A stretch of DNA of 64,000 nucleotides from Octopus vulgaris (Eukaryota): NCBI GenBank assembly GCA_951406725.2, contig OX597817.1, forward strand, positions 158,596,001 through 158,660,000, in the 5' to 3' direction. The position numbers and the translations under genes were made by a program. Positions 19,949-62,776 of this stretch are shown in pieces; position 1 is the stretch's first letter; every line of letters begins with the position of its first letter. The notes beneath the pieces were generated by a model. The model had not been told where the DNA came from. It saw nothing but the letters and a program-made list of their open reading frames with translations, and did no database searches.

Positions 19949-21101
19949 CAGCACGACAATGGCAAACAGGAAAAAACAAGATACACGGATTATTCGCAGC
20001 CCATTACCTCTTCAGACGGAACCCGGAATGTCTTCGTAGTTTCGTCCACTTACCTCCGATACTACTCGAAACCGGCTGGGCCAGGGACTTGTGCTAAATG
20101 TATAAATATTTATATATATAAACACTTACTGAAAAAAAAAAAAAAATAAGGGTACATGGCGTTCCATTATGCTATCTGTGTATCATACTGAAGCACATAC
20201 ATTGTTGAAGACTTGATCAACTGAGGTATTAGTCTCGGGAATGCATCTCTTAAAGATGTTTAGTGCTAAAAAACACAGAAATCTATCTGTAGCTGACAAA
20301 AATTGTCCACCAGCAGTGGTGGCATTGCTAAATGTGTGCATTTCTGTCCCATTGCGCTTCGTCAGTAGCAAGTGTCCACTGGCAAACTCATATTAAGGCA
20401 AATCCGTCCTTACTGACTGAAAAACCGCAGATGTCGCATTTAGCCGGCAGGCTGAATAAAAATTTATGCGCAACAGAAGCATTGATATATATTTCTTTAC
20501 TACCCACAAAGGACAAACAAGGACAGACAAAGGGATTAAGTAGATTACATCGACCCCAGTGCGAAACTGGTACTTTATTTATCGACCCCGAAAGGATGAC
20601 AGGAAAAGTCGACCTCGGCGGAATTTGAACTCAGTACGTAACGTCAGACGAAATACCGCTAAGCATTTCGCCCGACGCGCTAACGTTTCTGCCAGCTCGC
20701 CGCCTATATTGTTGAAGAAGCATTGATATATATTGATTTTAGTCATTGGATTGCAGCCATGCTGTGGCACTGCTTTCTAGTGCTTGGTAGATCGTATTGT
20801 CTCCTGTACATATTTCAGTGTAGCTGATACTGATACTAATCTTATCGTGACTTGGAATATCAAGCCTCTCTCCCCCTCTCTCTTTCTGTCTCTCTCTCTC
20901 TCTCTCTCTGCCTCCCTCACTCTATGTCTATCTCTCTCTGTCCATGCGTATGTATATGCACACACACATAGACACACACACACACACACACACGTGTGCG
21001 TGTATTATGGGAAGTGAAGGATATGAAAGAGTTAGGTACTTCGCGATGATCTAATCCTTTTTCACACGAATGAAACGAACGCCAAATGGTTTGCTCTAAA
21101 G

Positions 21102-48279: not shown

Positions 48280-48595
48280 TGGGGTAGACAGAGACAGACA
48301 GACACACACACACACACAATGGGCTTCTTTTAACTTCCATCCTCCAAATTCACTCTCAAGGTATTGGTCGGCCCGAGGCCATAATAGAAGACACTTGACC
48401 AAGGGGCCATGCAATGAGACTCAAGCTGTAACCACCTGGATGGGAAGCAAGCTTCGTAATCACTCACCTACATCTGCTTGTAACAAAATAAATCTGCAAA
48501 TGGATGAATGACACAAAATCCAATTTTACTTAATTTGAATGTAAATCTGAAGCTCTAAGAAATCATTGATTTATAGAAAAGTGTAAGGTTTTTAC

Positions 48596-48627
48596 CTGTT
48601 CAAAAGACTCCTGAAGTGTGGTGCCCC
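48596..48627 (-). CDS. ZBTB8OS: Archease exon 4, 32 nt (WGTTLQESFEQ)
   Basis: ttccttaactgacatttctctag|...CAG|gtaaaa; matches WGxTLxEAFEQ. Confidence 0.9.
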
Positions 48628-48808
48628 CTAGAGAAATGTCAGTTAAGGAAATATGAGTGGTGATGACTCATGAATGATGATGCTTCATGATGATGGTGAC
48701 AGTATTGTCAAGGGTGTATTTGAACCTCTATGTTAAAACCTACAAAATTCTGTAATCAACTGGAAATCTCCGCAGAAATAGTCGATGTCAGTATCTTGCA
48801 GGTTTTAA

Positions 48809-49028
48809 CCCTTTCATTACCAACCCGGCTGAATCCTGCCCTGGCTCTCAGTATAAATGTTTTGTTTTCATAAGTTTTGAATTAAAATCTCCCACCAAAC
48901 CTTAGTCACAATTTATGTTCCTAACACCAGCTTAATGATAACTGAGTTATTTTACTAAATTCATTGTTATATCTAAAGTAATTGAAAGAAATACAGAGCA
49001 TCTCAAAAGAAATAGAGTAACGAAAGGG
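48809..49028. mobile_element. piggyBac-like MITE
   Basis: TTAA|CCCTTTCATTAC...GTAACGAAAGGG|TTAA; empty site near 54285. Confidence 0.9.
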
Positions 49029-49536
49029 TTAATGTCTATAGAGTGGGTTTCCTCTACAGAGCTATCAAGTATCTGAAATGTTGGAATAAGCACAGGTACT
49101 GAAAATGCATTATGGGATATTGCCTTATTGCAAGAGGAGAGTTCTGACTACTGTGTATGTGTGAGTGCCTTGACATTGCATGATTGTTGTAAATTAATGT
49201 GATTCATTTCCAATGTTCTGCAAGAACATGTCTGGCCACAGGGAGATATTACCTTGCTTGGAAACAGATAAGTGTTGGCAACAGGAAAGACATCCGGCTG
49301 TAGTAAATCTGCCTCAATAAAATCTGTCCAACGCATGCAAGCATGGAAAAGTGGATGTTAAAATGATGATGATGAGGATAATTGTGGAGTAGCAGAATAG
49401 TAAGAAGCAGTCAACTGTAGACATGCTTTGTGATGTTTAACTGTGTCCTTCTGCTTTCTGCATTCAAACCCTCACCTCATTGCTTTAGCCTTCTATCCTT
49501 TCACACAGCAATAAAATCAACTATTGGGAGATATAC

Positions 49537-50040: not shown

Positions 50041-50254
50041 TACTGAATCTAAGATTCTCTTCCTATACAAATTCATGGCTTTGTGTCAAATATGTAAAAT
50101 ACCAATATTATTGCAACTTGAGCAGCAAATAATATTTCATTAGATGCAATGATAAGTGAAATGGATTGAATAAGATGATGATGGTAGTGATGATAGTGAC
50201 AGTGATGATCAGTGACAACATAGCCTCAAATATTAATTAGTTCTCAAAGGATAC

Positions 50255-50265
50255 AGGAATGAATT
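50255..50265 (-). CDS. ZBTB8OS: Archease exon 3, 11-nt micro-exon (Q-IHS-W)
   Basis: ctttacag|AATTCATTCCT|gtatccttt; restores the frame and the conserved Q-[LI]-H-x-W-G motif. Confidence 0.9.
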
Positions 50266-51150: not shown

Positions 51151-51355
51151 ATGAAATATATAGGGGTTTATGTCACTACATTTACAAAGTACAGGGAATC
51201 ATCATCATCATCATCATCATCAACAACAAAAACAATATCCATGTTCCATGCTGGCATGCGTGGGGCAGTTTGACAGAATTAGATGAGCCTAAGGACTGGA
51301 CCATGCTCCAGTATTTGGTTTGATATGGTTTCTATGGCTGGACATCATATATTAA

Positions 51356-51577
51356 CCCTTTTGTTACCAACCCAGCTGAAACTGGCTCTGGATCTGAGTA
51401 CAAATGTCTTGTTTTCATAAGTTTTGAATTAAAATCTTCCACCAAACCTTCGTCACAACTTATGTTCCTAACACTAGCTTAATGATAACTACGCTATTTT
51501 ACTAAATTCTTTGATAAAAATTTAAAGTAATTAAAAGAAACACAGAGCATCTCAAAATAAATACAGTAATGAAAGGG
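51356..51577. mobile_element. piggyBac-like MITE, same family
   Basis: TTAA TSD, CCCTTT/AAAGGG termini, same interior. Confidence 0.88.
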
Positions 51578-52568
51578 TTAATGCTGATTATGTCACTACT
51601 ATTACAAACAGAGGGTATTAAGTTACTAAATCAACAGAAGTACAGGGGATTAAGTCACTTCAATTAAATATATACGGGATTATGTCAACAAATATAGATA
51701 CAGAAAACTATGTCACAACAACAACATAAATAGGGGTTATGCAATCCTAATCCTTTATATCCATTTCTTTACTACCCACAAGGGGCTAAACACAGAGGAG
51801 ACAAACAAGGACAGACAGACGGATTAAGTCGATTATATCAACCCCAGTGCGTAACTGGTACTTAATTTATCGACCCCGAAAGGACAAAAGGCAAAGTTGA
51901 CCACAGTGGAATTTGAACTCAGAACGTAGCGGCAGACGAGATACCTATTTCTTTACTACTCACAAAGGGCTAAACACAGAGGAGAAAAACAAGGACAGAC
52001 AGACGGATTAAGTCGATTATATCGACCCCAGTGCGTAACTGGTACTTAATTTATCGCTCCCGAAAGGATGAAAGGCAAAGTTGACCTCGGCGGAATTTGA
52101 ACTCACAACGTAACGGCAGATGAAATACTAAGCACTTTGCCCGGCGTGCTAACATTTCTGCAACAGCATATAGAGAAACTTGCAAATAGTTTGCATATGC
52201 AAGTGCTGCCGATTAAAACCTCTGCATACCAGATACCAGTAAGCTTCAGGGGTCATCAAGAGAGAAAATGCACTGTTTGGGGTGCCTTCCTCTCCATGAC
52301 TTCACAGCACACTGGTCCCCTCACTAATGTGAGGCCCCAACTACTGAATTGACTAACTAGAATTTGATCTTATGTCTTTCATCTTGGGAGCATCAGCACC
52401 ATTCAGACTGTGAAGTTACAACCGCATGTGTAGATTATATCATTACATTTTCAGGTACAGGGTTTAATGTCATTACAGCTACCTATGTAAATTATGTAGT
52501 CATAGTTACATAATCCCTAGTATCATAGGTGCTTTGGTATTAAAAAGGCTGAAGGAGTTGGTACTTAC

Positions 52569-52593
52569 TGGACATCAGCTGGATGGTCCAAGT
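52569..52593 (-). CDS. ZBTB8OS: Archease exon 2, 25 nt (YLDHPADVQ)
   Basis: ttttcag|...|gtaagt; conserved DHxAD motif. Confidence 0.93.
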
Positions 52594-53612
52594 CTGAAAA
52601 AAAAGTTATATAACAATTAAAAAATATAAAATGATTGTTATTAAATAGTTTTAAAAATTGTTTGTTAATGTCATTAATACTAACATATTAACAGCTTTAG
52701 AGTGACCCCAATACTCAACTGGTACTTATTATAATGGGCCTGTAAAGATGACAGGCAAAGTTGACCTCGGGGGAATTTGAACTCAGAATGTAAAGATGGA
52801 CAAAATGCCGTGAAGCATTCCGCCCAATGTAGAAAATGAAATGCTTAGCGGCATTTCATCCGTCTTTACGTTCTGAGTTCAAATTCCTCCGAGGTCAACT
52901 TTGCTTTCCATCCTCTCGGGACCAATAAATTAAGTACCAGTTGAGTACTGAAATCGATATAATCAAATGCCAAAATTTGAAAGCAATATTGGCTTCAACA
53001 CCTAATTACACTTTCATACGGGGTAGTGCACAACATAAGAGATATTGTGCACTCAATACTGACTAGTTGATTTTTGCCATTGGTCCTTATTGGGGGCAAG
53101 GTCATCAGCTTCATTAAATCAAAGTTTGCATCAGGCTATATAATCACTATCATCATCGTTTAACGTCCGCATTCCATGCTGGCATGGGTTGGACGATTTG
53201 ACTGAGGACTGGCGAACCAGACGGCTGCATCAGGCTCCAATCTGATCTGGCAGAGTTTCTACAGCTGGATGTCCTTTCTAACACTAACTAGTGGGTACCT
53301 TTTACGTACCACCGACATGAGGGCCAGTCAGGCAGTACTGGCATGGGAGCCAGTCAGGTGGCACAGGCAACGATCATGCTTGGATGGTGCTTTTTACGTA
53401 CCACTGGTACGGGACCAGTCAGGCAGCACTGGCATCGACCATGCTTAAATGGTACTTTTAATGTGCCACTGGCATGGGTGCCAATCAGTCGGTACTGTCA
53501 TCGGCCATGACAATGACTTCACTTGCCTCAACAGGTCTTCACATGTGCAGTTTATTGCCCAATGATTGATGGGTGCTCTTAAATGGGCTGGTTATGCTGC
53601 ACTGGCATTTTT

Positions 53613-55225
53613 TGCAAATGTATGAATGACACAAAATCCAATTTTACTTAATCTCTATATATAAAAAGCTGAAGTTGTCCGTGTATGGCAGGTTTGGTAG
53701 CCTTCAACTAACACTATCTCCTCCGAGACCCTGCAGCGCAAGTTGACCAAAATTGACAGTATGTTAGAAGAAGGCTTGCTCTTCTTTCTGTAGAAGAAAA
53801 AATTCAAATTGGACCATGTTAACACCAAAAATGTGCATTTTTTCTGTGAAAATCCCTATTTTTTACGATTTTTTTTACTGCTGTGTCGCCATTTTTCGGT
53901 GTATTTCAACCAGAAAAATGTTCACTTAAAGAGAATAACAAGCTACATAATACAAAATTTTACTTTTCAAAAATTCCAATTCTAAAGGGTTGAAACAAAC
54001 CCGAGCAATGCCAGGCGATACTGCTAGTTTGAATATAAATCTGAAGCTTTAAGAATTCGTTGATTTATAAAAGAGTGGAAGGTTTTTACATGTTCAAAAG
54101 ACTCCTGAAGTGTGCTGCCCCCTAGAGATGTCAGTTAAGGAAATATGAGTGGTGATGACTTATGAGTGATGGTGGTGACAGTATTGTCAAGGGTGTATTT
54201 GAACCTCTATGTTAAAACCTACAAAATTCTGAAATCAACTGGAAATCTTCACAGAAATAGTTGATGTCAGTATCTTGCAGGTTTTAATGTCTATGGAGTG
54301 GGTTTCCTCTATAGACCTGACAAGTATCTGAAATGTTGGAATCAGCACAGGTACTGAAAATGCATTGTGGGATATTGTCTTGTTGTAAGAGAAGAGTTTT
54401 GACTCCTCTGTGTATGTGCACGTGTATATGTTATTGTCCAGTTTTATTTCAAGATTTCTTGCCTACAGAATAAGGGCTGGTTTCTAACCTAGATTCAAGG
54501 TTCCTTCATTGGAATTTCAACATCAACAACAGGGTATTTTTGTTTTGAATGTATGTATGTATATGTGCAGATTTGTATGTTTTACTTTATGTATGTATTT
54601 TCATGCATATAGTTGTATATCTAGACATATTCATATGTATTTAAATGATAAACTTTCCAGAAGTTTATCAATATATATGTATGCATGTATGTAAATAAGG
54701 AGCATTCTGTCGGTTGCGACGACGAGGGTCCCAGCTGATACGATCAGCGGAACAGCTTGCTTGTGAAATTAACATGCAAATGGTTGAGCACTCCACTAAC
54801 ACGTGTACCCTTAACGTAGTTCTTGGGAAGATTCAGCGTGACAAGGCTGGCCCTTTGAAATACAGGTACTACTCATTTTTGCCAGTTGAGTGGACTGGAG
54901 CAATAAAATGTCCTGCTCAAGGACACAACGTGCCGCCGGGAATTGAACTTAACTCATGACCCTAACCACTGAGCCATGCGCCTTCATTTGTATGTATGTA
55001 CATATATATGTATACATGTATGATATATGTACATATAGGTGCATACATGTATGATGTATGTATGTACATATATGTGTGTGTGTGAGTGCCTTGACATTGC
55101 ATGATTGTTGTGAATTAATGTGATTCATTTCCAATGTTCTGCAAAAACGTGTCTGGCCACAGGGAAATATTACCTTGCTTGGAAACAGATAAGTGTTGGC
55201 AACAGGAAAGACATCCAGCTGTAGT
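53613..55225 (-). pseudogene. Intragenic duplicate of about 48495-49305 (archease exon 4 with U12 acceptor), in intron 1; pseudo-exon 54090-54121
   Basis: Colinear high similarity with 48495-49305 once each copy's TE insertions are removed; exon copy reads GG GGC AGC ACA CTT CAG GAG TCT TTT GAA CAT|gt. Confidence 0.85.
53652..54027 (+). mobile_element. Non-autonomous Helitron, subfamily B; empty site visible in the paralogous segment
   Basis: acttaa|TC...CTAG|tttgaat versus empty acttaatttgaat near 48530. Confidence 0.92.
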
Positions 55226-56229
55226 ATAGGAATGACTTGGGGGAAGGTATGTTAAATACATGAGGGCACTGGGAGTGAATCCTCTCTAAGACAGTGGTTC
55301 TTAAACTGACAAACAGCAGTGATACCCACCACCACCACCACCAAAAAAGTATCAGTGAAATGCTTGAATTTCTTTCCACCTACTTTATCAATGAGATGAC
55401 AAAATAGATTAATAGATTTTGCATCTGTATAATTCTTCTTTCTTCACTAAGGTTTGACAGATTAAAAAAATTTAAAACCAACCGAATTTTTATTAAACAT
55501 GGCCATTTGTCTATCTCCTTTTCAAACCTCACAGTTCCTGCCACTTATGAGAAACTCTACCTAAGCAAATAGTATCTCACGATTACCACAAGCATATCTT
55601 ATATCATAACCAACATGCCGGTAGTATCTTAGTCACGTACAACCAGATCTACGGTTATAAGTCCACAAAATGGAATAAATTTGGGTATGATGAGAACGAG
55701 AATTCTGATGTTCCGGATCGGACCCTCTGTCCGAGTATATACGGATATAAGGAGAACGCAGATAGACTGTTTACAGTATCCGGCAATCAGTTCAGAAGTC
55801 AGTGATTGCCAGCACGTGTCTTTAAAGTCAACACAGAAACTCTCAAATGACCAGTTCACTTAGCTGCTAAGTTTCACCAGAACTATTTAGTACAATACGC
55901 ACGAAAGATCCGTCTCTCTTTAACTCAAATCTATTCTATATTCCAATACAGATTACAACTAGTTCTTCCACCTCTTACATTTTATTAGCAGCAACCACCA
56001 GATCATCTCATGAATAAGGCAGATTTAATCCGGCCTTTGGGTGTCTTTAGCGATGTCCACTATGTTGTAAATATTCGGATCGAATCTCTAGTCTGAGGGT
56101 ACCTTTCTCTCAGCCTCCCACCAACCACCGAAACCCGTAAAAGGCGGCACTGTCATGCCTTTAGTTGTCAGGAGGAAAGTAGAAAAAGTGATCGAAAAAA
56201 AAAATGCGGTTATCCATTCAGCAGTCTAT

Positions 56230-56355
56230 GGTTAATATCTAGATCCGCACCCGGTGGGAAAAATGAGATCCGCACCCGGTGGGAAAAATGGAAACGAAAA
56301 TGTGTAACAGTTGTAATCTCATTTTTCCCACCGGGTGCGGATCTAGATATTAACC
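56230..56355. mobile_element. Small MITE with 40-bp perfect TIRs and 8-bp TSD (Merlin-like)
   Basis: CAGTCTAT|GGTTAATATCTAGATCCGCACCCGGTGGGAAAAATGAGAT...AACC|CAGTCTAT. Confidence 0.85.
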
Positions 56356-56794
56356 CAGTCTATATCAAAGGACTTTGCCTTGAATCTGATTAAAAGTTAT
56401 CATTACTTTTAAACTTCGGTCTGATCGTGTTGCATGATATACTGAAACCGTTTTAAATCGAAACTACGCATTTTATTTTTTTCTACAACTAATAACTTCT
56501 TAGTTAAGAAACGAAAAGACGAAAATCATCAATGGTAGCCCCATCCAAACACGGTGCTTACCCATTTCTACATTATCTGATGTGTATATTAACACAATCA
56601 AAACAAGACAATGATTTCGAGTCATTTTGTTTACATAAGATGTCGCAATAAGTTCGCTGAAACTCTTTCAAAAGTGGGCTATTTTATCATCAAGAAAAAG
56701 ATAAAAGGTATGAAGGATAACAAGTAATACAGAGCTAATAAACGATCAAAACAAAATAACTGAAAGCAAAGAAAATGTATTTACTAATAATTAC

Positions 56795-56858
56795 ATTCAT
56801 ATTTAATAACAGGCAGTTCCAAGTCCATGAAATCCTGGTTGGTACAATTGTTCGCCAT
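56795..56858 (-). CDS. ZBTB8OS: Archease exon 1 (MANNCTNQDFMDLELPVIKYE)
   Basis: aagATGGCG start; KYE-Y matches the archease N-terminal motif; donor T|GTAATT. Confidence 0.9.
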
Positions 56859-57016: not shown

Positions 57017-59241
57017 GTATTTTGACATTTTCGCGGCTCTAATTACATACTGATGTATCGCTTTTGTCTGTAGATAGTGGTTTGTATTCCATTAGGTATA
57101 AAGGTAAATGTTGTTGTTGTGTAGCACCTGCTAGTTCTGATCGAGCGGGACGTCCCATTAAATCAATATCGTTTACCGGTTGATGAAACCGGTAAAAGAA
57201 AATGAAATGAAAAAAAATACACAAATTTAGCGAAAACGGAAAATTTTAACAGTTACATATGTGTTTGTGTTTATCAATCAATAAGTTAACTCAACTTTAG
57301 GAAAGTTCTAACAGTTACATGTGTGTGTTTATTTGTCAATAAATTAACTCAAAGCTGGTGTTAACAAAAATTAAAGCAGTTATCTCAAACAATGACCTTT
57401 TACTTATTCGTTTCGGTTATTCAGGGAAGCGAATTTATTTTTGCACATTCCCTATTATCGTTGGTTCATTTTTAATTGCTACCACTTTAGTTAAAGATTG
57501 CTCTTTTCTTATTAAATGTCTCTTCAGATATTTAAGGGATGGTGAAACGAGATTTTGTGATAGTTGTTCTGCTCAAACATTAATTGCAGTCAAAAATTAA
57601 TAATCGACACCTGTTTTTGAGCTAAGACACGTGTAGATGTCTCACTACTCTCCACTCTCTTAACTAATTATCTTCGCCTTTTATGACTCAGTTGATGAAC
57701 AAACAATGTCAGTGTCAACGTAATTGATTCATTCATATCAAGTCTACTTTAAATGTGGAGAGGATAAAATTTGTTCAGTAAGATTGCAATATGAGTGCTT
57801 ATATCATAGCTTAAGCCAACAGGAGTACTTGAACTTAGCACTGCAATCTAATGTAAATACTTGTCTATTATGCACTGCTCCTGTTGTCACTTGGTGAGTT
57901 AAACTAATGAAGGTTAATTTTGCAGGACATTGTCACAACACCTGATTTTCCAGCATCCTTCACTTTGGTACAACAAAAATATGATGGAAACATTTGGGTA
58001 TGACGAAGTAGTTAGGTTACAGTTAAGGGTAACCAGTATTGTGTATATTGCTACTTGAGTGACGCTATTTTCTTAATGTAGATGGCAAATTGTTAATGCG
58101 ATGCAAAAATAACAGAAGTTGACCCTTCAACCAGTAACTCTATTCCCTATTGTATTTCAACCAATTGCAATTGTCCGCCGTCAGGGCGATCCAGTAACGA
58201 CCCCAGTGCGTAACTGCTACTTAATTTATCGACCCCGAAAAGATGAAAGGCAAAGTCGACCTCAGCAGAATTTGAACTCAGAACGTAACAGCAGACGAAA
58301 GGCCGCTAAGCATTTCGCCCGGTGAGCTAACGTTTCTGCCAGCTCGCCGCCTTTGTATCTATCCTTCAAGACTCCCATTTAATTGAGGGGTTTTTCTCTT
58401 GCAAGTTACTTGGTGATCTAGCTGCTGCTTTTGCTGGTATCGCTCAAAAATGCACCCAGTATGCTGTATAAAGAGGTTGGTATGAAGAAGGACATCCAGA
58501 GCCAACAGCAAGGCTTAAACCATCAAACCCATGACAGCATGGGAAATGGTCATGAAATTATGATGTTGATGATGCCACCACACCATAACAAGGACTGGAC
58601 CTTATGGTGGGTGGTACATTATAGTGTAGTATATTTGAATGCGAAGGTGCATGGTTCAGTGGTTAGAGTGTCAGGCTAACAATTATGAGGTACTGAGTTC
58701 AATTCCTGGACTGGACTGTATGTTGTGTTCTTGAGCAAGACACTTTATTTCATGTTGCTCCACTTCACTCAGCTGTAGAAATGAATTGTGATGTCTTTCC
58801 CTTGAGTAACATCAGTGGCATAGAGAGGGGAGGCTGGTATGCCTGTGTATCTACTGGTCTTCCATAAGCAACCTTGCCCAGACTTGTGCCTTGGAGGGGA
58901 ACTTTCTAGGTACAGTCCCATGGTCATTCATGTATTTAGGACTTCATTACACTTCCTTTTCTAAGGTAGAGTGTGATTTGAGGGAGATTTGGCAGTTATT
59001 TCTTCCAATATGTTAAAAGTGATTCACTTCTGTAAGCCCTTCAGGCGAAAGGCCCTAATGCAAATGTAAACCGACCTGTTATGTCATCGACACCTTGTGT
59101 TGCATGCTTATATCTATTGTTTTCTTCTTTCTTCTTAAAGCTCAGACAGTACAGTTATTGCCTATTTATATCTTTATTTATACTGTTATTACTCCCAAAG
59201 TATCATATCCATCATATGTATTTATTTATTTATTCCTATAG

Positions 59242-59971
59242 GCCCATATTCGTGGTTTTGTTGTCCGACATCGGATGAAAAAACTAAGAACAGAATTTGA
59301 GGAAATTATGCAGGAAATTCATCCCAATGGAAATCTTCATGTTGTTTGGAAAAGAAATTTGTTATGCTTACCTGAATTTTCTTCAAAGAAAGAAAGTTGT
59401 AAACCATTCCAGTTGAATTCTAAACCAAATAAATCAAAACCTCCTGAACTTCTAACTAGACCAGAGAACCATTCAATTCCTGGAAATTTTAGCAAACATT
59501 CTTCAAAAACATGTTCTAACTTTTCTGCTGAAAATTTTACATCAGATTCTTTGAACCGGTGTCTAAATAATCAAACATCTATAAATACCACTGAACATTA
59601 CAATATACAAGGAATTAATAGTGAAAGAGACAAAGAAGTACATAGAGGTGAAGAATTGGTTGAAAAAGATGGGAATCATATTATAGAAGACTCTATTGAG
59701 TCAGTGCAACTGAAGAACGAGAGAAAAATTTCCTTGCATACGGACTGCAGTGAGACAGATTTTGATAGAAAAGCTCCAAATCATCGTGATCATTTGTTTA
59801 GAAATGGAAATAGTCTTCCAAGAAATTCAAGAAAAGAACAGTTCATGAAAAATGGCAATGGCTCCATTTCTACAGCATCATTTTGTTTGCCTGTATCTTC
59901 TCCTACACCATTTGACTGTTCATCTTTGACTGATGTCACCTCAGTTTGGGACAGCACCCCATCATCTCCAG
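59242..59971 (+). CDS. IQCC: IQCC-like exon 2 (AHIRGFVVRHRMKKLRTEFEEIMQEI... then disordered)
   Basis: ttcctatag| acceptor; G|GTAATT donor; IQ motif followed by LRxE[FY]ExI as in the IQCC N-terminus. Confidence 0.85.
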
Positions 59972-60544
59972 GTAATTTATCATCATCATCATTGTTTAAC
60001 GTCTGTTTTCTATGCTAGCATGGGTTGGACTGTTTGACCGGGGTTTGGGAAGCCAGGAGGCTGCACCAGGCCCCAGTCTGATCTGGTAGTGTTTCTACAG
60101 CTGGATGCCCTTCCTAACGCCAACCACTCCGTGAGTGTAGTGGGTGCTTTTTACGTGCCACTGGCACAGGTGCCAGGCGAGGCTGGCAATGGCCACGATC
60201 GGTTGGTGCTTTTTACGTGCCACCGGCATGGAAGCCAGTCAAGGCAGAGCTGGCATCAGCCACGTATGGATGGTGCATTTTACGTGCCACCAGCACAGGT
60301 ATCACAACTACAATTTCCATTTGATTATATATTTGTATTCCAGTAGCAGAATTGCTAGGATCTCTGACTGATTTCCTTGCGATATTTAGTCACATCTTTT
60401 TACATTCTGAGGTTATACTGCCAGAGTTGACTTTATCTTTCATTCTGCCTGGGTTGATAGAATAAATTCCAGTGAAGTACTTGAACTGATTAGACCAACT
60501 GTACACACCCACTTCCCTTGTATGTCTCTTTGTACTAAACTTAA

Positions 60545-60733
60545 CCCTGGCTTTGTAGTACAAATGTCTTATTTTCATAAGTTTTGAATTAAAATCTTCC
60601 ACCAAGCTTTAGTCACAATTTACATTCCTAACACTAGCTGAATGATAACTAAGTTATTTTACTAAATTCTTTGTTATATTTAGAATAATTGAAAAACACA
60701 GAACATCTCAAAATAAATACAGTAACAAAAGGG
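60545..60733. mobile_element. piggyBac-like MITE with a short 5' internal deletion
   Basis: TTAA|CCC...AAAAGGG|TTAA; same interior. Confidence 0.8.
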
Positions 60734-60998
60734 TTAAACATTATCATCATCATTGTCATCTTTATTATTTTGCTGTTCATCATCATCATCGTTTACCGTC
60801 CGCTTTCCATGCTAGCATGGGTTGGACGATTTGACTGAGGACTGACAAACCAAATGGCTGCACCAGGCTCCAATCTTGATCTGCTGTTAATAGTGTTAAT
60901 GTTGTAACTTGCTTAATTCCTATTAAACCACAATCTGTGGTTCAGAATGAAAAGCATTCTTGTTCCTTCTGTTAAAGTCCTTTTATGCTGCTGCTGCT

Positions 60999-61033
<35 letters not shown>

Positions 61034-62776
61034 CAAAATCAACAACAACAACAATAATAATATTAATAATAACAATAATAATAATTATCATCATGATCAT
61101 CATTTAACATCCGTTTTCCATGTTGGCATGGATTGGACAGTTTAACAGGAGCTGACAAAGCCGGGATCCACAGCAGGCCCTCTTGGCCATTTTCACATGG
61201 TTTCTACAGCTGGATGTCCTTCCTAATGCAACCACTTTACGGATAGTACTGGGTACTTTTAACATGGCACCAGTGCTTTTTATGTGGCATCATATCCACC
61301 AAAGCTCTGTGAGTAGATTTGGTTAACGGAAACTGAAAGAAGTTCATCGTATATATACAGATATGTGTGTGTGTGTGTGTGTACATGTGAGCATGTGTTT
61401 GTGTCAACTTGCCCTAATGTCACATGATGGTTGTAAATGAGTGTCACTCTCATACAAGCAGTGTCATTCATTTCCAATATTCTGCAAAAACATGCCTGTC
61501 TAAAGAGAAATATTACCTGCTTGGGAACAGGTGAGGTTTGGTGACAGAGAAAGCATCCAGTCATAGAAAATTTGCCTCAATAAACTCTGACTGACTTATG
61601 AAGGCCTGGAAAAGTAGGCATTAAAACGATGATGATGATGATGATATCTGTTTTTCCTTTGTATTGAGTACTTTCGGATATAATTCTTGCCAGACCAAGT
61701 AAACAAGTTATCTGAACTGAACCCATTCCCAGTAAAGGTATATGGCTTAGTGGTAAGGGTATTTGGTTCACAATTGTAAGATCATGAGTTCAATTCCTGG
61801 TGGCCCGTTGTGTTCTTGAGCAAGACACTTTATTTCATGTTGCTCCAGTCCACACAGCTGATGAAAATGAGTGGTACTTGTATTTCAAAAGGCCAGCCTC
61901 ATCACATCCTGTGTCATGCTGAATCTCCCTGAGAACTACATTTAAGAGTACACGTGTCTATGGAGTGCTCAGCCACTTGTACGTTAATTTCGTAGATTTA
62001 CGTAGAGTGGGACCCTTGTGATGACTGGTGGAGTGCTAGTAGTCATACCCATTCCCAGATCAAGATCAAACTTTCCAAGGTTTACACTAAAATTCTTCAT
62101 TAGGCATAGGAGTGGCTGTGTGGTAAGTAGCTTGCTTATGAACCACATGGTTCCAGGTTCAGTCCCACTGTGTGGCACCTTGGGCAAGTGTCTTCTACTA
62201 TAGTCTCGGGCTGACCAAAGCCTTGTGAGTGGATTTGGTAGATGGAAACTGAAAGAAGCCCGTCGTATATATGTATATATATATATATATATGGCATTAG
62301 GAAGGGCATCCAGCTATAGAAACTCTGCCAGATCAAGATTGAAGCCTGGTGCAGCCATCTAGTTTGCCAGCCCTCAGTCAAATCGTCCAACCCATGCTAG
62401 CATAGAAAGCAAATGTTAAACGATGATGATGTGTTTGTCCCCCCAACATCGCTTGACAACCGATGCTGGTGTGTTTACATTCCTGTAATTTAGCAGTTCG
62501 GCAAAAGACACCGATAGAATAAGTACTAGGCTTACAAAGAATAAGTCCTGGGGTCGATTTGCTCAACTAAAGGCGGTGCTCCTACATGGCCACAGTCAAA
62601 TGACTGAAACAAGTAAAAGAGTGAAAAGAGTAAGAGTATTACAGTTCCCCAAACCCCAACAGTGGTTGGTTGGTTGGATCATGGCCTTGTTAACCCTCAT
62701 ATACAAACATTACTTTGTCATATTTCATAAACACAGTGCAGTATACTATATGTTATGTATCAACTAGCAGCATAGT

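Follow-up and report, generated by a model that had tools for sequence, protein, structure and literature searches.

The gene for archease, a tRNA-ligase helper, carries in its first intron a second copy of the segment around exon 4 in Octopus vulgaris, and this copy is probably (at roughly 78%) a long-standing, unused relic whose decay resembles that of neutral intron sequence. The locus is a partial intragenic duplication that has left an orphan U12 acceptor and a pseudo-exon. Within the window (the whole 64,000-nt stretch of DNA that was analyzed), the segment recurs 5.5 kb upstream in intron 1 as four co-linear blocks, with an exon-to-exon offset of 5,494 nt (Table 1). The original prediction, made from sequence alone, held that about 0.6 kb of unique sequence had been duplicated upstream, and an alignment of the two segments bears out the duplication: 36/574 aligned bases differ (6.3%; 40/584 with slightly wider ends) and the best block has an E value of 3e-101, far beyond chance. 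Part of the sequence is not unique: the shared bases include 115 nt of a dispersed repeat (78% like 61462-61645) and a 78-nt palindrome.

Table 1. Coordinates of the archease gene, the duplicated segment and associated elements in the window (slashes mark exon/intron boundaries)
Feature	Position	Strand	Remarks
Archease exon 1, coding part	56795..56858	-	donor AAT/GTAATT, U2-type, without -1G and without +5G
Archease exon 2, 25 nt	52569..52593	-	model equals P0001
Archease exon 3, 11-nt micro-exon	50255..50265	-	model equals P0001; X15 record 9 match ends at 50265
U12 donor GTATCCTTT of intron 3, phase 1	50246..50254	-	motif match
Authentic U12 branch-point motif TTCCTTAAC	48642..48650	-	second A 15 nt before intron end
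Archease exon 4, 32 nt, donor CAG/GTAAAA	48596..48627	-	X4 record 24 identical over 48504-48669
Archease exons 5-9	46363-46285, 42286-42204, 41037-40985, 40100-40064, 37656-37567	-	exon model; PF01951 on 5, 6, 9
Copy block 1	55078..55233	-	matches 49157-49312; 6/152 differ; starts part-way through dispersed repeat
Copy block 2	54288..54412	-	matches 49033-49155; 13/123 differ
Copy block 3	54287-54028	-	matches 48808-48534
Copy block 4	53613..53651	-	matches 48495-48533; 1/39 differ; final shared bases in this assembly
Orphan U12 branch-point motif TTCCTTAAC	54134..54142	-	second A 13 nt before intron end
Pseudo-exon (exon 4 copy), 32 nt, after AG	54090..54121	-	substitutions at 54115 and 54090 (donor -1)
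Copy donor CAT/GTAAAAAC	54082..54089	-	7/11 U1-consensus matches vs. 8 in original
Insertion private to copy	54413..55077	.	simple and dispersed repeats at CA-rich tract; absent from original
Insertion private to copy	53652..54027	.	between A and T, without target duplication; presumably Helitron-like
Insertion private to original, TTAA-flanked	48809..49032	.	87% like 51352-51583 and 60545-60737
TTAA-bounded palindrome in copy	54211..54287	.	hairpin -32.5 kcal/mol, z -7.5, 0/200 shuffles as stable
Palindrome in original intron 3	48732..48809	.	hairpin -33.2 kcal/mol, z -7.9

The archease model without the copy exon is a minus-strand reading frame of nine exons and 157 codons. It is identical to P0001 (157 aa), which corresponds to O. 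vulgaris CAI9722090.1 and O. sinensis XP_029635819.1 ("protein archease"). In single-exon profile searches, exon 9 alone scores 27.5 bits against PF01951 (cut-off 25) and so places the product in the archease family, while exons 5 and 6 match below the cut-off and exon 1 has no match. Intron 3 (50254-48628) carries both U12 motifs, GTATCCTTT after exon 3 and TTCCTTAAC before exon 4. The former matches the donor form GTATCCTT of U12-type GT-AG introns at 50254, and the latter provides a TCCTTAAC branch point 15 nt from the acceptor. From these motifs we infer that the minor spliceosome removes intron 3. The donor at 50254 is the sole gene-strand U12 donor motif inside the gene; other U12-donor-like motifs lie outside it, at 21024 and 4976 (minus strand) and 29561 (plus strand).

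The 11-nt exon 3 is flanked by a U2 intron on its 5′ side and by the U12 intron 50254-48628 on its 3′ side. Since exons 2 and 3 together comprise 36 nt, skipping both would keep the frame and delete DHPAD, a skip that exon 4's U12 acceptor may prevent. DHPAD forms residues 24-28 of P0001 and is found in 28/120 fetched homologues, with DHTAD in 90/120. Substitution of His9 and Asp12 in Pyrococcus archease cuts activity according to a portion of PMC3973293, and the spacing of the motif suggests that octopus DHPAD corresponds to these residues. In an animal-like archease locus (L017:2003-2032, Ga0099808_1079772; 61% to P0001), exons 4-9 are merged into one, and TTCCTTAAT and AG precede the same tryptophan codon in phase 1; the contig has no donor or upstream exon. 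This locus hints that the U12 intron may be old. The tryptophan codon is uninterrupted in 8/8 other loci, chosen from 80 for split alignments. At the exon 1 donor, four other loci (L015, L019, L030 and L044) have GTAAGT vs. GTAATT in octopus (56794-56789), which makes the octopus donor look like a weakened, derived form.

Sequences from other organisms show that the duplication is real and suggest that it is old. Four of 24 listed runs, none of the 24 being on record as RNA, namely X4 (organism B), X13 (organism E), X16 and X15 (guessed to be RNA), all consisting of contigs, were compared with the window at 88% likeness. X4 differs from the window at 41/3447 bases (1.2%) over five flank pieces and X13 at 146/2212 (6.6%) over three. 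The copy's upstream border is crossed, with over 31 letters to either side, by X4 record 29 (55187-55446, depth 58.6) and X13 record 6 (55170-55412, depth 55.6); the duplication therefore did not arise from misassembly and probably has considerable age. X13 record 2 (49209-49356) crosses the matching point of the original. The check in related species suggested with the original prediction thus covers the upstream border in X4 and X13, where the bridging contigs contain 46-63 nt of the copy's repeat-derived end but not its exon. Divergence between copy and original (6.3%) is close to that of the X13 flanks (6.6%; P = 0.85) and both contexts occur in X13, as would be the case for a duplication roughly as old as the X13 split, or older. 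Depth in the bin 53746-54042, which lies mostly on the 53652-54027 element, is 2.16 million in X4 vs. 16.6 in X13, and near absence from X13 fits insertion of this element after that split.

These data leave little room for an assembly artefact or for two haplotypes placed in one scaffold, a reading that we regard as scarcely credible. None of the pieces listed spans the whole stretch or both exon copies, as an artefact would allow, but the 6.3% divergence between copy and original compares with 1.2% for the near organism X4, each copy has insertions of its own (three in all), and two other organisms bridge the upstream border, X13 bridging the original's matching point as well. The downstream border is uncertain because matches to the original end at 48504 in X4 record 24 and at 48495 in X13 record 1. 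The window may carry an indel of its own at 48495-48504, just downstream of the exon 4 flank. We considered X13 record 1, which starts at 48495 and is gapless vs. the original, as the X13 version of the copy and leave it unassigned, since the original-identical X4 record 24 stops there too. The two X13 contigs over 48696 have a summed depth of 105.8 vs. about 60 for single-copy sequence, which fits two loci or overlapping ends. X15 record 8 (449 nt, depth 6.3, 48978-49350) shows 28 differences and 12 gaps vs. the original, other X15 pieces being near-perfect; a third copy, a divergent haplotype or a different organism might account for it.

The simplest account of the origin is a single local templated insertion. 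One copy-and-paste event, by templated insertion or template switch during repair, would have carried sequence from the original to the new site. This direction is indicated by a dispersed repeat (49198-49382, 78% like 61462-61645) that extends further at the original site, the copy starting within it. No target duplication was found at the borders of the copy. Alternatively, exons 2-4 were duplicated in tandem and the duplicated exons 2 and 3 were then deleted, a history that concerns origin only, predicts the same neutral fate and so overlaps with the relic explanation. A tandem event would place the exon 4 copy upstream of exon 2 by construction, and the shared segment may once have reached further downstream, given that X4 and X13 contigs cease matching at 48504 and 48495. 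Against it, comparison of 55233-56800 with the region around exons 2-3 revealed no remnants of these exons upstream of the copy, and because the tandem intermediate adds 68 nt and shifts the frame, a null allele would have to persist until the second event. We therefore think tandem duplication unlikely, though worth keeping in mind. Repeat cover within the 54413-55077 insertion reaches 42-fold in the window, and intron 1 contains self-inverted stretches at 52709-52950 (78%/246 nt) and 56230-56355 (76%/127 nt) that are probably repeat-derived. An Rfam search of 37000-58000 and a 20-nt pattern search in metagenome contigs each gave 0 matches.

The copy retains most of the splice signals of the original. 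As predicted, a branch point, an AG, a 32-nt exon with two substitutions and a GT are all present in the alignment. One of the two substitutions, overlooked in that prediction, is a G to T change at donor -1 (CAG/GTAAAA to CAT/GTAAAA). The copy also carries a 13-nt deletion further upstream and a 2-nt deletion between branch point and AG, the latter shifting the branch-point spacing from 15 to 13 nt; the optimum given in an excerpt of PMC3584512 is 11-13 nt. The strict motif TTCCTTRAC occurs twice in the 64-kb window, both strands counted, once in the original and once in the copy, and a strict motif search of the window confirms that the copy is the sole such U12 acceptor upstream of the U12 donor at 50254. 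The sole donor upstream of the copy is, as proposed, the U2-type exon 1 donor (AAT/GTAATT), and the three predicted junctions (56795>54121, 54090>52593 and 50255>54121) have correct coordinates. A linear U12 intron ending at the copy would need a U12 donor upstream of 54121, but the minus-strand U12 donor motifs are limited to 50254, 21024 and 4976.

The donor of the copy has lost -1G and lacks +5G. In terms of the two main donor classes described in part of PMC11732430, AG//GU and GURAG, it has left the first without gaining the second, and the -1 change likely weakens it. The exon 1 donor also belongs to neither class, yet it is in use, since the match of a 655-nt X15 contig (depth 167) ends exactly at 56795. 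We initially read the copy donor as outright dead and softened this to weakened, as the exon 1 donor has the same gaps yet is used. Cap assistance to first donors could explain the use of the exon 1 donor. The copy acceptor has a pyrimidine fraction of 0.71, equal to that of two of the gene's seven U2 acceptors, and is T-poor (0.35 vs. 0.53-0.71 in the gene's U2 acceptors).

Sequence change in the copy is consistent with neutral decay. The pseudo-exon differs from exon 4 at 2/32 positions vs. 38/552 in the flank (P = 1, Fisher's exact test), and the interval running from branch point to donor +6 has 2/57 differences vs. 34/517 elsewhere (P = 0.56). The probability that chance alone spares all 13 motif bases is 0.43, or 0.66 if half of the changes fell on the copy, so the surviving branch point and AG need no selection. 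The copy-original comparison thus gives no excess conservation of the splice signals, at the low power that 32-57 positions, 6% divergence and two sequences afford. Both copies have taken separate insertions since the duplication, the copy donor has lost its -1G, and the annotated 157-aa protein does not include the copy exon. The lone -1 change could itself be selected silencing.

Incompatibility of splice-site classes is a plausible reason why the pseudo-exon would stay silent, as originally proposed. U2 and U12 sites are generally incompatible according to the passages of PMC3584512 cited here. The copy was probably tolerated because a U12 branch point so close to the AG would suit the U2 donor of exon 1 poorly, so exon 1 would keep splicing to exon 2; the later donor -1 change would further weaken definition of the 32-nt exon. 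A pyrimidine fraction within the gene's U2 range makes U2 use of the copy acceptor possible, and the barrier is maybe not absolute.

If the barrier leaked, the copy might act as a major-spliceosome poison exon (exon 1 > copy > exon 2) that sends part of the transcripts to nonsense-mediated decay. The frameshift foreseen for such inclusion is borne out by the exon model, in which translation would end after 63 codons at a stop lying 224 nt before the last junction (the frame rule for poison exons being more than 50 nt), and the acceptor composition and the functioning of a neither-class donor at exon 1 are in keeping with inclusion. In a variant, exon 1 > copy > exon 5 leaves an open, in-frame 145-aa product that lacks 12 residues including DHPAD. 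Nevertheless, the donor is without -1G and +5G, the tract is short and T-poor, its branch point lies 13 nt before the AG, the pseudo-exon is absent from the annotated protein, whose cluster has no other member, and the copy shows no conservation signal (P = 1 and P = 0.56, with donor -1 changed; low power, two sequences). We consider a poison exon very improbable.

The orphan acceptor might instead be used by the minor spliceosome, with the U12 donor at 50254 back-splicing to 54121 at a measurable rate. Back-splicing (50255>54121) is geometrically possible, as the U12 donor lies downstream of the U12-type acceptor, and the motifs fit, including a branch-point spacing inside the 11-13 nt optimum quoted from PMC3584512. 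The circle would measure 68 nt with all introns removed and about 1.56 kb with the intron to exon 2 retained on account of the weak donor, and its formation would compete with removal of intron 3. X15 record 9 (50128-50265, depth 2.2, 13 letters over) is compatible with a transcript whose exon 3 has been spliced on its upstream side while intron 3 is still in place and, X15 being guessed to be RNA, gives a weak hint of slow U12 splicing. The duplicated palindrome could also pair across copies at -72.5 kcal/mol vs. -32.5 and -33.2 kcal/mol for the local hairpins. However, in the minimum-energy fold of 54320-48700 the two local hairpins persist, the cross-pair is missing and the flanks do not pair with each other, some 1.4 kb separate the downstream palindrome arm from the U12 donor, other intron pairs of the archease gene have stronger and longer reverse-complement matches, and no excess conservation is seen. 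In the part of PMC4165365 used here, minor-class circles are not enriched and most circles are credited to the major spliceosome. The best 15 of 3127 joints in the joint table, all at repeats, include neither the three predicted junctions nor the normal exon joints and so say nothing on junction use (differences are given for the best 40 of 1133), and depth on the pseudo-exon bin in guessed-RNA sets is 0.31 and 4.13, which we do not count as evidence. On balance, use of the orphan acceptor seems improbable. Less probable again is a stronger version in which the duplication made a U12 back-splice route that has lasted since before the 6.6% split, diverts transcripts stalled at intron 3 into circles and tunes archease and tRNA ligase. 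If true, such a conserved circle would show the birth of a U12 circular RNA by duplication.

The neutral relic has partial parallels among known systems. U12 circles to un-annotated acceptors are already described for human genes, including a cryptic exon of ATXN10, in the section of PMC4506483 available to us. Those circles (ATXN10, RANBP17, TCEA3 and MORC3) likewise pair a U12 donor with an un-annotated upstream acceptor in the gene but, as presented there, have junction reads and PCR, whereas the octopus circle is predicted from motifs; its acceptor is also, unlike theirs, a genomic duplicate of the intron's own acceptor. The hybrid intron of the JNK family (PMC3584512, in part) likewise involves a duplicated exon flanked by splice sites of different classes, and five human exon clusters with U2/U12 incompatibility are mentioned in an excerpt of PMC5740500. 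In these accounts the exons are adjacent, in-frame alternatives and both used, whereas the octopus copy lies two exons upstream, is out of order as a substitute for exon 4 and shows decay. With exons 2 and 3 between the copies, and the sole in-frame use dropping 12 residues, the octopus pair does not form exclusive exons of the JNK type. The USSE of SNRNP48 and RNPC3, as outlined in parts of PMC3584512 and PMC8034651, is likewise a partnerless U12 signal inside a U2 intron; it is donor-type and deeply conserved with a demonstrated feedback role, whereas the octopus motif is acceptor-type and has no excess conservation.

More generally, the relic resembles the typical products of intragenic duplication. 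Partial intragenic duplications leave dead pseudo-exons, and here too an intron end and exon were copied locally and then underwent decay and insertions. What sets the octopus relic apart is a single, non-tandem, out-of-order GT-AG U12 acceptor with a complete exon. As a relic it has little importance, since a genome rich in repeats should contain such partial exon duplicates. The locus nonetheless provides a clean natural test, having an intact U12 acceptor with a U2 donor only upstream and a U12 donor downstream, and the two exon differences separate copy from original in reads. With one deep RNA data set, the locus could gauge the leakiness of U2/U12 incompatibility in a mollusc and show whether the arrival of any compatible acceptor upstream is enough to make a U12 donor back-splice.

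Literature listings on archease/ZBTB8OS minor introns, the octopus minor spliceosome and duplicated pseudoexons contained nothing on this locus, PMC10944509 had 0 hits to a term search and PMC10108499 supplied no data; the O. sinensis minor-intron tables (PMC10639083) may include intron 3. A head-to-head neighbor gene on the plus strand, upstream of archease, is suggested by a 247-codon frame (59275-60018) together with a GT donor-like site at 57017.
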